Sequence record: PP400786 | Origin: Escherichia phage FL12 | Strand: one strand, 5' to 3' | DNA: 64,000 nucleotides | Shown here: in pieces, positions 35,015-43,798 of the stretch | How the letters are laid out: every line of letters begins with the position of its first letter | Position numbering within the stretch: the stretch's first letter is position 1 | Position numbers and translations under genes: made by a program | The notes under the pieces: model-generated | Seen by the model: only the letters and a program-made list of their open reading frames with translations | Told to the model about the DNA's origin: nothing | Database searches by the model: none

Positions 35015-35517
35015 TTAAAAGTATTTTTTAAAACTCATCATAACTTTATCATCAACATCATTATCAATCTGTGCAACAAGGTAAGATGACAGTTCTACTT
35101 CTTGTGGCGCGGATTGAACATTATCAGAATTAAGATATTCACGAATCCAAGGATACGGATGTTTAACCGGAGCATCGGTAATTGGGCATGGAAGACCACA
35201 CTGTTTCATACGAGATACAGTTAAGTAATCAATAAAGCTCCACATGCTATTTGTATTTAATCCAGGAACATCACCATCTTTAAATAAATGAACTGCCCAA
35301 TCTTTTTCTTGGCGGTTAACTTCCATGAAAATATCAACTGCTTCTTGTTCACACTCTTGAGCAATTTTAACCCATTCATCACCATCAGTGCCGGATTGAA
35401 GTTGACGAATAATATATTGAGTGCCTTTAAGATGAAGCTGCTCATCACGAGCAATGAACTTCATAATCTTGGCATTACCTTCCATGATTTCCATGTTCTT
35501 ATGGAAGTTAAAGGTAC
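35015..35517 (-). CDS. nrdB: ribonucleotide reductase small subunit NrdB, exon 2
   Basis: Encodes ...TFNFHKNMEIMEGNAKIMKFIARDEQLHL..., aligning with E. coli R2 ELMEGNAKII; joins exon 1 to give SFACTFNF. Confidence 0.88.
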
Positions 35518-36107
35518 CGTTATGTTCGATTGAGCTCGCTAATTCTCAACCCGTTCTCTTATGAACTGCTACATATTACTATGCAGACCAGACTATATCA
35601 CAATCCCAGAGGGATTCTCCCCATTTCGAGTCGCTTGACCCTACGTCCGAAGACTAGTCGTTGAACCTTGCTTTGCAATTGTCGCCGTGCCATCGTTTAT
35701 ATGTTGATGGTGATAAATCTTTCTTATCACAATATGGACAATTCAATTGAATTCTATTTGGATTTAATTTACATCTGTCATTATGTTTTAGATAAAATCC
35801 AGGACCTTTACCAATGTGCCCGCAGAAATCACATGTGATTTCTTTTTGTGCAGGATGGGTCCCGTTCTTAACCATTTCTAATGTTTTTGCTGATGTTCTT
35901 TTCTTATGGTCCCATCAGAATCTTTAAGTAGGTCCGTCAGCATCTATCCAAATTTTTCTATAGTTCAATTGTGCATCCTCTTAAAAGTATAATCATATTA
36001 TACTAATTAAAGGTGCAAGCAAAACCTTGGCTGCTAGTTTTCCTATAAAGGACTTTCCAGCAATTAAAGGAGTTTTCGATAAACGTTACCGTTTAAAGGC
36101 GCATTTT
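35518..36107 (-). mobile_element. group I self-splicing intron in nrdB (590 nt)
   Basis: Interrupts NrdB after conserved YVSFA; 5' splice site after U (GCGU), 3' end ...GAACAUAACG; core-like GGGUCAAGCGACUCGAAA and GAUAUAGUCUG elements resemble the T4 td intron. Confidence 0.8.
35654..35875 (-). CDS. truncated intron-encoded endonuclease remnant (I-TevIII-like C-terminal Zn-finger fragment)
   Basis: 73-aa ORF inside the nrdB intron with CDFCGH...CPYCDKKD Cys motifs. Confidence 0.5.
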   Translation of the reverse strand: MVKNGTHPAQKEITCDFCGHIGKGPGFYLKHNDRCKLNPNRIQLNCPYCDKKDLSPSTYKRWHGDNCKARFND

Positions 36108-36783
36108 ACGCAAAAGATACATAAAAACGAATAGCTTCTAAGGCATTAATAACGTGCAAACAGAGGTAAAGAGATTTCATTAAAGCACGTTTAGCTTCGG
36201 CTTCTTGTTTAATAGCTCGGTTTAAACGAAAGTCGGCATCAGGAGATTCTTTAGCTAGTTCTACAAATTCTTTAGCATTTTCCCATTCACGGGTTTTAAC
36301 CAAGACATCATCATAATAACGTCCAATGGATTCAGCTCGTTTCATAATAGCTTCATCTAATACAATCTCATCAAATACCTTTGACGGATCAGTATAAAGA
36401 TTTCGCATGATATGAGTATATGAACGACTGTGAATAGTTTCACTAAAAGTCCATGTAGCAACCCATGTATCTAATGAAGGATCTGAAAGCAATGGCATAA
36501 GTACCGCAGATGGTGCACGACCTTGAATGCTATCAAGTAACGATTGATATTTAAGATTATTAGTAAAAATATTTTGTTGATACTGAGGAAGTTTATTAAA
36601 TTGAGTAGCATCCATCATCAAGTTAACTTCTTCAGGACGCCAGAAAAACGAGAGCTGACGTTCAATAAGTTCTTCAAATACCCTATGTCGTTGAATATCA
36701 TAACGTGCAATTCCAAGACCAGACCCAAAAAACATGGGTTCTGTTAAAACATCGACCTGTTTAGTATTAAAAACTGTACTCAT
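36108..36783 (-). CDS. nrdB: ribonucleotide reductase small subunit NrdB, exon 1
   Basis: Encodes MSTVFNTKQ...LEAIRFYVSFA matching class Ia R2 up to the conserved RFYVSFA segment. Confidence 0.88.
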
Positions 36784-38375
36784 TATTTTGTCCTGTAAAC
36801 TAAATTTCCACAGTCCCAGATTCTTCTAAGACCATTTGCATAACAATTTTCTACTTCAGTTATTGTATCATCATAATTTTTAAGCTTGTTTTTAAGCTTA
36901 TGTTTCATATAGCTTGAGCGGTGAAATACCTCTCCTTTATCGACGTACCAATAACACGGCTCAGAGATATGACTAAATTCCATGACAGAGTCATAAACAT
37001 TTGATAATGTACTGCACCATCTTCGATTGCCATAAGATAGACAATTAATTCCTTTTAATAATTTTGAGACTCCTCCTACAACACAAACCCCCAATTTTGA
37101 ACACATCCTTAAAAGTTCATCACCTGAGCTATATCTAGATTTACCGATAGAAATAATTTGAACTAACTCATTATTGTAATAAAGTCCTTTATACGTATGA
37201 GCTCCCGAGCAAAATCCTTGAAGATGATTCTTATTAATAAATTCTTTTGCCTCATCCTTATTAACAAAACGCGCTTTGCATTTTCGGGCTGGTATTCTTT
37301 CTGATAATCCTAATTTATGCTTTATAATGGATTTCCAGATCTCTCTTTTTGTATCATCAATCCATTCATTTTCGAAGATGTGAAGTAATTGAATTCCTTG
37401 TGCTTCACACATCTCTGTCTTCATCAAATGATAAGTTTCTTTAATTTTATCTGTTTCCTTTGACCCGCTAGAATGCCAATAAATTCCATCGTATTCTATA
37501 GCCAATTTTTTCTCAGGAATGTAAATATCTAATTCATACGGAGGAATAATTTTTCTAGTTTCTACGCAATCAAATCCTAGATCTAAAATGAATTGCTCTA
37601 TAGAACTTTGAGTATAATGAACGTCAATTAGTCCTTTGGATGAAAGAGCTCTATAAGCCGTCATCCGAGAACAATTTGCTAATTGTTGTAGTTCTTCTAT
37701 AGAAATTTTGTAATTGATTTTATCTAGTATATCATGATTAATATGACCGTTATTTTTAATAGATTTTCCTATAGATGAATATAACGATGCCTTATATTCT
37801 TCAGTCCAATTTAATTTGGTCTTCTTAGATTTTTCGCGAGATTTTTTAGAATGCAGAATATCAACTGATTTACCGTTTTCTATAACTTTTCTCGCTTCTT
37901 TCACACTTTCTAATTGTGAATTATGCGTTACCCCATATCGTTCAATTAAAGTTTTTCTATTTTTATTTCTTGAAATTTTTTGATGAGTTGTTCCATATTT
38001 TTCTAAAGAATTTTTGTGTTGAAGTTCAGACAAATATTTTTTATATTTTTCTTTTCCACCAAAATTTGTATCACGGCTTTGAGTTCTCTTATCCGCGAAA
38101 AATATCCCTGCGCAGGATTTACTACATGTTGCTGGAAATACACGTTTCTTTGCTGTTTTCAGAGAAATGAAATTTCCACAAACTGCACATTTTAGATCGT
38201 TAATGTCAATGCCTTCCATAATTTGGAACACATTGAGCTTAAAATCTATTCCATCAGTTAGAAGAGCTTTATCTTCTTCTGTTAGTCTAGATTTAAGTTT
38301 TTCTTCTCCAAATGGAAGAAACTTTCCGTTTTTGTATATATTATCAAACATAGCGTTATTCTTAGTTAACCACAT
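36783..38375 (-). CDS. 530-aa multi-domain putative nuclease (Zn ribbon, YG-x-x-H repeats, HTH, Vsr/PD-(D/E)xK-like motif) in the nrdA-nrdB intergenic slot
   Basis: CAVCG...CSKSCAG; KYGTTHQ / RYGVTHNSQ repeats; HTH-like ISIEELQQLANCSRMTAYRAL; YELDIYIPEKKLAIEYDGIYWHS. Confidence 0.7.
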   Translation of the reverse strand: MWLTKNNAMFDNIYKNGKFLPFGEEKLKSRLTEEDKALLTDGIDFKLNVFQIMEGIDINDLKCAVCGNFISLKTAKKRVFPATCSKSCAGIFFADKRTQSRDTNFGGKEKYKKYLSELQHKNSLEKYGTTHQKISRNKNRKTLIERYGVTHNSQLESVKEARKVIENGKSVDILHSKKSREKSKKTKLNWTEEYKASLYSSIGKSIKNNGHINHDILDKINYKISIEELQQLANCSRMTAYRALSSKGLIDVHYTQSSIEQFILDLGFDCVETRKIIPPYELDIYIPEKKLAIEYDGIYWHSSGSKETDKIKETYHLMKTEMCEAQGIQLLHIFENEWIDDTKREIWKSIIKHKLGLSERIPARKCKARFVNKDEAKEFINKNHLQGFCSGAHTYKGLYYNNELVQIISIGKSRYSSGDELLRMCSKLGVCVVGGVSKLLKGINCLSYGNRRWCSTLSNVYDSVMEFSHISEPCYWYVDKGEVFHRSSYMKHKLKNKLKNYDDTITEVENCYANGLRRIWDCGNLVYRTK

Positions 38376-38391
38376 CCTTGTGGTAATTATA

Positions 38392-39381
38392 TCATAATTT
38401 ACAGGATGAACAATCTTCAGCTTTTGGAGTTTCTATTTCATAATCATCAGTACCAGAACCATCACGGGTATTATGATAATAGAAATTTTTAATGCCATAA
38501 TACCATCCGTATAGCATGTCATCAATCATTATTGACATTGGAACCTTTCCTTTTGGAAAAATCTGCGGGTCATAATATGTATTCGCTGAAGCTGATTGAC
38601 ATACCCATTTCAGCATAATAGCTACCTGCGTAAGATAAGGTTTATTACCTTTCTTAGCTAATTTCCATGTATAGTCGTAAAGGTCTATGTTATGCTCAAT
38701 ATTGGGCACGACTTGATTAAAGGAGCCCTCTTTTGATTCTTTAACAGAGACTGGTCCACGTGGAGGCTCGATACCGTTTGTACTGTTAGAAACTTGGGAA
38801 GATGACTCACATGGCATAAGTGCTGATAATGTGCTATTACGGATGCCAAAGAGCTTAAGGTCTTCCCGCAGCGCCGACCAATCACAAACGTATTTTGGAG
38901 CTGCGATTTGGTCAATCTTTTTATTGTACCAGTCGATAGGTAATTCGCCTCGAGACCAACGAGTGTCTGAATAATATTCGCAAGGTCCTTTTTCTTTGGC
39001 GAGCTTAATGGATGCTTTAATGAGTCCATACTGTAATCTCTCAAATAGTTCATGTGTTAAATCGTTAGCATCTTCATAAGAAGCAAAGTTACTTGCCAGC
39101 CAAGCTGCATAGTTGGTAACACCTACACCAAGATTTCGACGCTTTTTAGCTTTTTCTGCTTCAGGAACTGGATATCCTTGGTAATCCAAAAGATTATCAA
39201 GAGCACGAACTTGAACTTCTGCCAATTCATTAATTTTATCTTGGTCTTGCCAGTCAAAATTATCCAGTACGAATGCGCTAAGGGTACAAAGCCCCACTTC
39301 TCCCTTGTTTTCAATAACTTCTATTGTAGTATACTCATCATCTTCGTAAAATTCATCTACAAATTCATAATCAATATTCAT
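38392..39381 (-). CDS. nrdA: ribonucleotide reductase large subunit NrdA, C-terminal piece (329 aa) with novel acidic N-terminal leader
   Basis: After leader MNIDYEFVDEFYEDDEYTTIEVIENK, sequence GEVGLCTLSAF... to C-terminal CSSCKL aligns with E. coli R1 residues ~456-761. Confidence 0.85.
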   Translation of the reverse strand: MNIDYEFVDEFYEDDEYTTIEVIENKGEVGLCTLSAFVLDNFDWQDQDKINELAEVQVRALDNLLDYQGYPVPEAEKAKKRRNLGVGVTNYAAWLASNFASYEDANDLTHELFERLQYGLIKASIKLAKEKGPCEYYSDTRWSRGELPIDWYNKKIDQIAAPKYVCDWSALREDLKLFGIRNSTLSALMPCESSSQVSNSTNGIEPPRGPVSVKESKEGSFNQVVPNIEHNIDLYDYTWKLAKKGNKPYLTQVAIMLKWVCQSASANTYYDPQIFPKGKVPMSIMIDDMLYGWYYGIKNFYYHNTRDGSGTDDYEIETPKAEDCSSCKL

Positions 39382-40081
39382 TTAATTCTTTTACCTTTTT
39401 TCTAGTAATTCCTAAAGCTTTAGATGCTCGATGTATTGATTGATATTCTATACCGTTTATTTTTACAGCAATTAAGTTATGGGGTTTTAATCCCTTTGGA
39501 TGAGGTTTACTGACGAAAACTAAATTATCAAGCTCTGAAATCTTATCCAATTTCTTACACTTAAATCCTTTGTGATGCGACCGTTTACCTTTACAAACGG
39601 CTGACATTGCAGATGGATTTAAATTATGCTCTTTACAAAATTCGTTAAGACCTCGATGAATTTCCTCATGACCATCAGGAAATGTAAACACCCAAGATGT
39701 TTGAAGTCGAGATTTAACTTCTGGAGACATAGGAATACCTTTGTTCCAAGCTGGTTTGCCTTTATTATTTTCAGATACAGAAATAGCCAATTTTCTTCTA
39801 AGCCACCCATGGCGTTTATTGGTGTTCTTTCGTTCAATATTATCTTTAGAATAAACACACATCATATTAGCGGCAAATATCAATTTATGATTATTTGGAT
39901 ATATCTTTACTAATAATTGATGAGCTATGTAATGCTCTTCTGGCGTCAAATCTACCAGGTTTTCCTTTGTATCAGAACCACCAATACACAGAGGTATAAT
40001 ATGGTGTGATTCGGTATAGCAATCTAATTTTCTATTCTTAGCTTTAGAAATAAGGTTATTGTAAATTTTAAAATAATCCAT
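39371..40081 (-). CDS. HNH homing endonuclease (Mob-like) inserted within nrdA
   Basis: 236 aa; HNH motif ESHHIIPLCIGGSDTKENLVDLTPEEHYIAH; NUMOD-like GKPAWNKG motif; stop overlaps NrdA C-piece start. Confidence 0.85.
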   Translation of the reverse strand: MDYFKIYNNLISKAKNRKLDCYTESHHIIPLCIGGSDTKENLVDLTPEEHYIAHQLLVKIYPNNHKLIFAANMMCVYSKDNIERKNTNKRHGWLRRKLAISVSENNKGKPAWNKGIPMSPEVKSRLQTSWVFTFPDGHEEIHRGLNEFCKEHNLNPSAMSAVCKGKRSHHKGFKCKKLDKISELDNLVFVSKPHPKGLKPHNLIAVKINGIEYQSIHRASKALGITRKKVKELNEY

Positions 40082-40126
40082 AACTTTTCCTCTTGTTATG
40101 GATTATTTATTAACGGTCTGTGTACT

Positions 40127-41560
40127 TTATTTGCTTTGAATTATACCGTCAGGATTAGCTTCATAAAACTTAGCTACATCCGACTTCTTAATTTTGATTA
40201 AACGGGTTTGTTGGCTATTCACATCATTTGTTGGAATAGCAATTTCACAACACAAGTTACTCTGACGAATAGGCGCCTTTTCGCGAATAAACGGAGTGTA
40301 GTTATTCGTATTATCAATGAACTGTACATAAATCCTTGCTGTTCCTGAACGTTCAGTCATGAGCAATTCAAATAGTTCACGGGCTTTAATACGCTTTTTA
40401 CGAATATTAGGGTCTTTTTCTGCTGCTTCGTATAATTCACGGAAACGGTCTTGGTCTTTAAAATAAGAATAATAAAGCTCGCCACCCATTTCATGTGGAC
40501 TGAACAAAGTAATGTAATCGTTCTTTCCAAAACGTTCCATCATCAAATCATTCAGCTGAACACCATAATCCATATGACGAATGCGGTTTTCTTCTACGCC
40601 TTTGTTATTTTTCAAAACGAGAAGATTTTCAACTTCCAAATGCCAAATAGGATAATAAGCAGTAGCAGCGCCGCCACGAATTCCACCCTGTGAACATGAT
40701 TTAACTGCAGTCTGAAAATGTTTCCAAAAAGGAATAACACCAGTATGGCGTACTTCACCCATGCCAATCTTAGAACCTTCGGCACGAATCATACCAACGT
40801 TAATACCAATTCCAGCGCGTTTAGAGATATATTCAACAATTGAAGCGGAAGCCTTATTGATAGACTTCAATGAATCTCCTGCCTCAATAACAACACATGA
40901 ACTAAACTGTCGAGTAGGAGTACGACAACCAGCCATAATAGGAGTTGGCAGTGAAATTTGTCGGGTTGATACTGCTTCATAAAAACGAATAACGTGTTTT
41001 AGTCTATCAACAGGTTCATCTTGATGCAGTGCCATTCCAATAGTCATAAATGCAAACTGTGGAGTTTCATAAATTTGACCAGTGGTTTTATCTTTAACTA
41101 GATATTTTTCTTTTAATTGCATCGCCCCGGAATAAGTAAATTCCATATCCCGCTCATGCTTAATTTTTGATTCTAAAAATGTAATTTCTTCTGCTGAATA
41201 TTTTGACAATAATTCAGGGTCGTATTTACCTTCATTTACACAGTAAGAAATATGGTCAATAAATGAACGTGGTTCATACTGCCCATAAACATGCTTACGA
41301 AGAGCGAACATTAGACAACGTGCAGCTACATATTGATAATCAGGCTCTTCAACCGAAATAGAATTCGCAGCGGCCTTAATGACAATAGTCTGAATATCAT
41401 CAGTTGTCATTCCATCACGGAGATAAGATTTAATATTTTCATATAATTCATAAGGATCTACTGATGTTCCTTCAGCTGCCCAAGATAAAACTTTAATAAT
41501 TTTTTGTGGGTCAAAGCTCTGAGAAACACCACTACTTTTGATAACATTAATTAATTGCAT
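40127..41560 (-). CDS. nrdA: ribonucleotide reductase large subunit NrdA, N-terminal piece (477 aa) with 28-aa C-terminal read-through tail
   Basis: Contains active-site SNLCCEIAIPTNDVN (E. coli SNLCLEIALPT...NDVN) then non-homologous tail ending in TAA. Confidence 0.88.
   Translation of the reverse strand: MQLINVIKSSGVSQSFDPQKIIKVLSWAAEGTSVDPYELYENIKSYLRDGMTTDDIQTIVIKAAANSISVEEPDYQYVAARCLMFALRKHVYGQYEPRSFIDHISYCVNEGKYDPELLSKYSAEEITFLESKIKHERDMEFTYSGAMQLKEKYLVKDKTTGQIYETPQFAFMTIGMALHQDEPVDRLKHVIRFYEAVSTRQISLPTPIMAGCRTPTRQFSSCVVIEAGDSLKSINKASASIVEYISKRAGIGINVGMIRAEGSKIGMGEVRHTGVIPFWKHFQTAVKSCSQGGIRGGAATAYYPIWHLEVENLLVLKNNKGVEENRIRHMDYGVQLNDLMMERFGKNDYITLFSPHEMGGELYYSYFKDQDRFRELYEAAEKDPNIRKKRIKARELFELLMTERSGTARIYVQFIDNTNNYTPFIREKAPIRQSNLCCEIAIPTNDVNSQQTRLIKIKKSDVAKFYEANPDGIIQSK

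Positions 41561-42114: not shown

Positions 42115-43798
<1,684 letters not shown>

Follow-up and report, generated by a model that had tools for sequence, protein, structure and literature searches.

On the minus strand of the window (the whole 64-kb stretch of phage DNA analysed here) the reading frame of nrdB, the gene of the small subunit of ribonucleotide reductase, is interrupted by 590 nt. What is this intervening sequence, is a single NrdB still made across it, and by what means has it been maintained? The window comes from a Tequatrovirus, a T4-like coliphage; the 24 kb around the locus are ~96% identical to FL44, FL23, F26, SG1, Manna and Lv5cm. An nrdB intron with a defective I-TevIII endonuclease has been textbook knowledge for T-even phages since the late 1980s and early 1990s. 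The intron reported in the first-pass annotation is real and was rightly interpreted; it is a minor allele of this long-known element.

Exon 1 (positions 36108–36783, minus strand) has 676 nt and comprises codons 1–225 and the first base of codon 226; exon 2 (positions 35015–35517, minus strand) has 503 nt, including the stop codon at 35015–35017. The intron, positions 35518–36107 on the same strand, is thus situated behind the first base of codon 226. The frame of exon 1 runs from 36783 to 36108, where TAA follows directly upon ...RFYVSFA, the T of TAA being the last exon base. The intron begins with AAAAUGCGCC and ends with ...GAACAUAACG. Joined exons (676 + 503 = 1179 nt) are in frame and give a product of 392 aa reading ...RFYVSFA-C-TFNFHKNMEIMEGNAK...; the predicted junction in the spliced RNA is ...UUUGCGU|GUACCUUU.... 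The exon and intron coordinates proposed earlier all agreed, on the minus strand, with the ORF list and its translation.

The best control on the splice junction is a natural one, the intronless nrdB of phage N2. Its length is exactly 1179 nt, its sequence passes through the junction as TTTTGCA|TGTACC without indel, and its product differs at 9 of 392 aa. Both exons of the window are colinear with this gene, and the junction claimed in the first-pass annotation was found to be exact. In comparison with T4 NrdB, which is 4 aa shorter, the spliced product shows 93% identity.

We saw that Rfam, run at gathering thresholds on the whole 64-kb window, returned no family. When the ~1-kb region was searched with an E-value threshold, family RF00028 matched positions 35569–35809 with 34 bits (E = 1e-6; gathering cut-off 50). 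Homologous introns without an ORF exceeded the threshold of 50 for the same family: CE1 with 68.6, DCP80 with 74.1 and SP21535 with 69.1 bits. Taking 290 nt out of the P6a loop of the window intron gives the SP21535 intron (300 nt) with 100% identity; the two share a prefix of 142 nt and a suffix of 165 nt, the overlap being a 7-nt repeat, ACAATTG. The low score of the window intron is therefore caused by the ORF remnant, a 290-nt insert in the P6a loop, rather than by the core; since the identical SP21535 intron passes 50 bits, the ribozyme part of the window intron should by itself score above this cut-off as well. With the 590-nt segment as query we found homologous intron DNA in 128 phage records, which, together with the E-value of 1e-6, shows that the match is not one of chance. 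When IMG/VR viral contigs were scanned for exact copies of the P7–P7.1 core string, no locus emerged; the annotated phage collection was the source of the relatives used here.

The RNA fold was assessed over 11 distinct introns, trimmed of the ORF, with 15 hand-drawn helices of 87 pairs: P1, P2, P3, P4, P5, P6, P6a, P6b, P7 (pseudoknot), P7.1, P7.2, P8, P9, P9.1 and P9.2. In 99.5% of cells the 87 pairs were paired. Compensatory double changes were observed at nine pairs (three in P2, two in P9.2 and one each in P5, P6b, P7.2 and P9), in comparison with none in six controls with slid partners. Helices P3, P4, P7 and P8 are invariant among the 11 introns, so that covariation is uninformative for them; they were assigned by the Rfam consensus. 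RNAalifold independently produced P1, P2, P4, P5, P6, P6a, P7.1, P7.2, P9, P9.1 and P9.2, and the unconstrained minimum free energy (MFE) fold of the full 610-nt segment, with the remnant in place, recovered all nested helices save P2. A first hand-drawn register of P6a, which had 4 mismatched cells, was dropped and the RNAalifold register GUUUUGC/GCAAAGC was adopted. Given the RF00028 match, the ORF-less homologues above threshold and the covarying helices, the claim of a group I intron in nrdB is upheld.

All the RNA elements lie on the minus strand. P1 (36099–36111) pairs exon bases GCGU (36111–36108) with the internal guide GCGC (36102–36099); it is invariant in the 11 introns and present in the RNAalifold and MFE folds. 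Within it, the 5′ splice site is marked by the wobble pair U36108–G36102, also invariant in the 11 introns; at the 3′ splice site the final intron base, 35518, is G. The P2 hairpin with its GUAA loop (36080–36095), where three of the compensatory pairs fall, is followed at 36032–36072 by the 5′ strand of P3 (36072–36067), P4 (36062–36057/36037–36032) and P5 (36052–36049/36044–36041), which were placed by the Rfam alignment, the MFE fold and, for P5, a compensatory pair. The 5′ strands of P6 and P6a occupy 36019–36030, and in the RNAalifold register, with 9/9 pairs formed in the 610-nt MFE fold, their 3′ partners are at 35666–35676; hence the position of the ORF remnant in the P6a loop.

The 3′ half of the catalytic core (35589–35660) was placed by the Rfam alignment and the MFE fold, with one compensatory pair in P7.2. 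It consists of the P7 5′ strand (35660–35655), P7.1 (35654–35645), P7.2 (35641–35628), the P3 3′ strand (35622–35617), P8 (35615–35603) and the P7 3′ strand (35595–35589); P7, a pseudoknot, was assigned by the conserved R/S elements. The last segment, 35518–35586, holds P9 with a GUAA loop (35586–35569), P9.1 (35566–35553), P9.2 (35551–35528) and the terminal G at 35518; it has support from RNAalifold, the MFE fold and compensatory pairs (one in P9, two in P9.2). P10 has 2 bp at most. The hairpins P7.1 and P7.2, GUC-UUCG-GAC and GGGUC-AAGC-GACUC at 35654–35628, with a U-A pair of P7.2 replaced by C-G in DCP80, are extra elements between the P7 5′ and P3 3′ strands, and we therefore assigned the intron to subgroup IA2, the type of the T4 td, nrdB and nrdD introns; in sequence, too, it closely resembles the 3′ half of the T4 td intron.

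The T4 and RB3 alleles of the nrdB intron have been described as self-splicing (PMC2790892, PMC1865063). Through the identity of its ribozyme with these splicing relatives, we infer that the window intron self-splices too. The primary nrdB transcript would fold into the P1–P9.2 ribozyme; free guanosine would attack after U36108, and the terminal G at 35518 would then direct exon ligation, to yield an mRNA for the 392-aa ribonucleotide reductase small subunit.

How close is this intron to the known ones? The first-pass annotation had pointed to three RNA motifs resembling the T4 td intron, and all three are present: GGGTCAAGTGACTCGAAA with one mismatch, GATATAGTCTG exactly, and a P9 similar to that of the td intron. 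Over 590 nt, identity is 99.0% to FL23, 98.5% to Lv5cm, 96.3% to T4 and 98.2% to RB3, the last counted in two pieces outside the deleted part. The window intron is thus an allele of the classical T-even (T4/RB3) nrdB intron and more than a td-like one. Alleles of about 99% identity can already be found in GenBank, and the highest value for any database record is 99.0%, so that the window allele has no exact counterpart there.

The T4 intron shares with that of the window the gene, the insertion site (TTTTGCGT|...|GTACC), the 96.3% identity over the whole intron, a large I-TevIII deletion in the same short repeat and a retained C-terminal zinc-finger remnant. It differs in length (598 nt versus 590 nt) and in its neighbour genes, mobE and nrdB.1 in place of hef; the core polymorphisms of the window ribozyme are RB3-like rather than T4-like. 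The window allele is also further decayed: a loss of 6 nt takes out TATAAATA, the stub is frameshifted by 2 nt and the junction is short of another 2 nt, so that the open frame has 73 aa as opposed to the annotated 97 aa of T4. According to PMC1865063 and PMC2790892, where Eddy & Gold 1991 is cited, the T4 element is a group IA intron with a defective I-TevIII; in the T4 record (NC_000866) the two parts of nrdB are annotated as a join that encloses ‘I-TevIII ... defective’.

The ribozyme core of the RB3 nrdB intron is identical to that of the window save for a 6-nt hairpin-loop deletion in the latter. The RB3 intron, however, is 1091 nt long, with mobE upstream and an intact 269-aa HNH I-TevIII of which the window lacks residues ~15–196 in frame; RB3 I-TevIII is active and makes the intron mobile (PMC1865063). 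The same hef–nrdB layout as in the window, with introns 98–99% identical, was found in U5, FL23/FL44, Lv5cm, G8, F26, LH2 and Manna; those aligned (U5, FL23, Lv5cm and LH2) also have the 6-nt hairpin-loop deletion. Unlike the window, U5 has an intron of 1083 nt, with a full-length ORF disabled by a 2-nt frameshift. The GenBank record of Lv5cm already carries the annotation ‘defective intron-associated endonuclease’.

What is left of the endonuclease can be read from the alignment with RB3, which revealed four lesions (all elements on the minus strand). First, in the hairpin that hides the ribosome-binding site of I-TevIII (35977–36013, with AAGAGGA at 35976–35982; placed by alignment and one compensatory pair), 6 nt are missing from the loop, and with them the TATAAATA late-promoter motif, present in RB3, T4, HY03, S16 and DCP80 and absent in the window; the logic of this hairpin and late promoter is described in PMC2988022. 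Second, a 2-nt deletion in the 5′ stub shifts the frame to TAA, so that the aligned N-terminal stub (35924–35968) reads LNYRKIWIDADGPT and then stops. Third, ~0.5 kb is deleted, including the HNH domain and most of the DNA-binding region; the alignments place this junction at 35903–35916 (GATGG|GACCATAAG), within an imperfect repeat, GAAGA[A/C]C, which is also the site of the T4 junction. Fourth, 2 more nt are lost at the same junction; this closes the out-of-frame ATG on which the annotated 97-aa ORF of T4 depends.

The remnant ORF (35654–35875, minus strand) corresponds to I-TevIII residues 197–269 (PHROG 12324 positions 197–269, E = 8e-51). The alignment with RB3 I-TevIII showed one synonymous difference and no amino acid difference, and both CX2CX12-13HX3C zinc fingers are kept (C211/C214 and C242/C245 in the numbering of PMC1865063). 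Pfam HNH_3 matches residues 4–48 of RB3 I-TevIII and has no match in the 73-aa ORF. The claim of a truncated I-TevIII-type ORF with zinc fingers only is confirmed on all these points. The minimal DNA-binding domain of I-TevIII was defined as residues 166–269 (PMC1865063), of which the window encodes just 197–269, an incomplete domain. A construct almost equivalent to the remnant, fragment 194C of Robbins et al., takes up two zinc ions and forms dimers, yet leaves the homing site unbound (PMC1865063). With the HNH domain lost as well, the remnant can neither cut nor bind DNA, and we consider the 73-aa ORF best read as a pseudogene fragment.

One could speculate that the 73-aa zinc-finger ORF still encodes a functional small protein, for instance a dimerisation module poisoning the I-TevIII of co-infecting phages, or a regulator. 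The frame is intact, identical in amino acids to RB3 197–269 and open in several deletion variants (T4, FL23, Lv5cm, LH2, FL18 and AV114), and the corresponding fragment is able to fold and to dimerise, as just noted. Even so, the ORF has neither the TATAAATA late promoter nor a Shine–Dalgarno sequence upstream of its ATG (AAACATTAGAAATG), and the fragment does not bind DNA. Synonymous and non-synonymous counts over the 73 codons gave 0–5 substitutions in 222 nt, a number too small for selection to be demonstrated, and the final ~25 nt coincide with P6a′, P6′ and the 5′ strand of P7, a constraint on the 3′ end that explains the conservation in part. In addition, the ORF is missing in part or altogether from close relatives (SG1, 420 nt; SP21535 and CE1, about 300 nt), and an intron-bearing allele is already immune to I-TevIII. 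We regard a functional protein as very unlikely.

Could nrdB be a fractured gene, with halves translated separately and assembled without any RNA splicing? A precedent stands in the same operon, where nrdA is split by a MobE-like ORF without an intron signature and its two products appear to assemble in this way. For nrdB, though, all parts of a group I ribozyme are present between the two halves, in a form identical to introns that pass the Rfam threshold, and the T4 allele, as mentioned, was described as a self-splicing intron. Once joined, the exons form one frame exactly as long as nrdB without the intron; exon 2 lacks both a tail sequence and a start codon where it meets the intron, its first ATG being 8 codons in. 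A fractured nrdB is thus extremely improbable, and we return to a group IA2 intron that would be spliced out.

The nrdA arrangement itself deserves description. The gene (38392–41560, minus strand) is split by a 236-aa HNH/NUMOD endonuclease ORF at 39371–40081, whose first ~77–130 aa are 45–55% identical to MobE. The break falls between residues 449 and 452 of T4 NrdA, between the active-site cysteines of NLCCEI and GLCTLS. NrdA-a (40127–41560, minus strand; 477 aa) ends in a basic C-terminal tail of 28 aa, and NrdA-b (38392–39381, minus strand; 329 aa) begins with an acidic N-terminal tail of 26 aa. A search of the divided nrdA with Rfam gave no sign of another intron, even at E <= 0.01. The split NrdA of Aeh1 is assembled through such tails (PMC3045599), and the arrangement in the window mirrors it. 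We saw split nrdA in 34 phage records; the mention of it in a preprint is limited to ‘Aeh1 and several others ... unpublished’. Further along, the td ORF for thymidylate synthase (42115–42975, minus strand) is uninterrupted; its product has 286 aa, the T4 length, and an N-terminus near-identical to T4 Td. The phage of the window is therefore without the td intron and the I-TevI that T4 carries.

Turning to mobility, I-TevIII is dead through four lesions, and the intron cannot home by its own means; the T4 allele, whose deletion is practically the same, is not mobile without help (PMC1865063, PMC2790892). The earlier claim of an intron immobile on its own holds, given the loss of the HNH domain seen in the RB3 alignment and with Pfam. 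That the intron might still be autonomously mobile has nothing in its favour beyond the I-TevIII origin of the ORF and has a probability close to nil, as deletion or frameshift has removed the HNH domain (HNH_3, RB3 residues 4–48) and everything up to residue 196, the minimal DNA-binding domain begins at residue 166, and the T4 allele with nearly the same deletion does not move alone.

For the T4 nrdB intron, mobility in trans is provided by MobE, a free-standing HNH endonuclease encoded next to it that nicks nrdB near codon 42; the process has been termed ‘trans homing’ (PMC2790892). Dependence of the window intron on a trans-acting endonuclease, as suggested in the first-pass annotation, is a sound inference, the idea being already published for the T4 allele. 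In the window, the slot between nrdA and nrdB that holds mobE/nrdB.1 in T4 is occupied by hef (36783–38375, minus strand), encoding a Vsr-like free-standing homing endonuclease of 530 aa (PHROG 3339, E = 2e-150). Its product is 99.2% identical over 530 residues to the Hef of phage U5 (ABI48935), encoded at the same place directly upstream of nrdB, and more remote homologues bear the annotation of Hef-like homing endonucleases. In U5 the annotated start of hef is 14 codons further upstream, at a non-ATG codon; the same upstream sequence is present in the window.

The stop codon of hef overlaps the start of nrdB (ATAATGA), which puts the intron site at ~0.7 kb from hef, inside the roughly 2-kb range of co-conversion quoted for T4 homing events (PMC2790892). 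According to a review, nrdB is cleaved by U5 Hef (PMC2988022), and according to a second source U5 Hef cuts near its own locus. Because of the 99% identity to U5 Hef, the cleavage of nrdB by the latter and the distance of ~0.7 kb, Hef is the obvious candidate and a likely helper, or trans-mobiliser, of the window intron. The similarity to trans homing by T4 MobE lies in a defunct I-TevIII intron less than ~2 kb from a free-standing endonuclease gene that targets nrdB; the difference lies in the enzymes, MobE being HNH and the window Hef Vsr-like and EDxHD-related, and mobilisation driven by Hef is our conjecture. Linkage of hef and intron is not obligatory, since phage N2 carries hef and no intron. 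To look for a co-conversion tract centred on Hef, mismatches between the nrdB exons of the window and those of 15 phages were counted in bins; the profiles were mosaic and no tract was singled out.

Taken jointly, we are highly confident in a T-even nrdB IA2 intron that splices out, carries a dead I-TevIII and is kept by vertical inheritance, most likely with Hef-driven spread in addition. In such spread Hef would cut the nrdB of a co-infecting phage and the intron would be carried over by co-conversion, much as MobE does with the T4 allele.

The hef-carrying records bear on the fate of the endonuclease gene. In every one sampled, and the sample is small, I-TevIII is defective, by different routes: in U5 (intron of 1083 nt) by a 6-nt deletion in the promoter loop and a 2-nt frameshift in the HNH region; in the window, Lv5cm, F26, FL23, FL44, G8, LH2, Manna, ESh36 and FL18 by the T4-type deletion; in SG1 (420-nt intron) by a larger deletion; SP21535 and CJY920 have ORF-less introns of about 300 nt, and the nrdB of N2 is intronless. 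Among the sampled phages with a mobE-like gene, the ORF is intact in RB3, HY03 and S16, and T4 has the deletion. The junctions fall in distinct repeats, GAAGA[A/C]C for the T4 type, AAGAAC in AV114, AGAT in SG1 and ACAATTG in the ORF-less introns; deletions therefore recur at short direct repeats. Such recurrence, in a small sample, fits the usual decay in a homing cycle. Somewhat short of an even chance, in our judgement, is a stronger reading, in which the nrdB intron of the hef lineage became a passenger of Hef, transferred by co-conversion in co-infections, with selection on I-TevIII relaxed as a consequence. If true, it would extend trans homing of the MobE type to an unrelated family of endonucleases and provide a natural decay series of the homing cycle. 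The hef-linked alleles may form a compact natural series on how an endonuclease gene decays once a neighbour can carry the intron.

There are also consequences for annotation. At default thresholds Rfam can miss phage introns that bear an ORF. In the present case the intron is missed on account of the remnant in the P6a loop, and several GenBank records therefore list nrdB as two genes. In the records of FL23, FL18 and ESh36 nrdB appears as two separate genes, and the intron carries four small ‘hypothetical proteins’ on the antisense strand; the matching plus-strand ORFs of the window (35530–35664, 35668–35838, 35814–35927 and 36027–36134) are most likely spurious gene calls.

Two more features of exon 1 were observed. 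Codon 42 of nrdB (36658–36660) is CGT (Arg) in the window; T2 nrdB, with the MobE nick site there, has AAG. Arg codons CGG and CGA occur at this place in some phages that carry mobE (PMC2790892), and the window nrdB, with Arg as in those carriers, may be a poor substrate for MobE. A hypervariable, mosaic stretch is found at nt 500–600 of nrdB (window ~36184–36283), where 47–50 of 100 positions in T4, U5, ESh36 and S16 do not match the window; in the bins flanking it, three Tequatrovirus phages (T4, U5 and ESh36) have 0–10 differences. This pattern suggests that the stretch may be an alternative allele swapped in by recombination.
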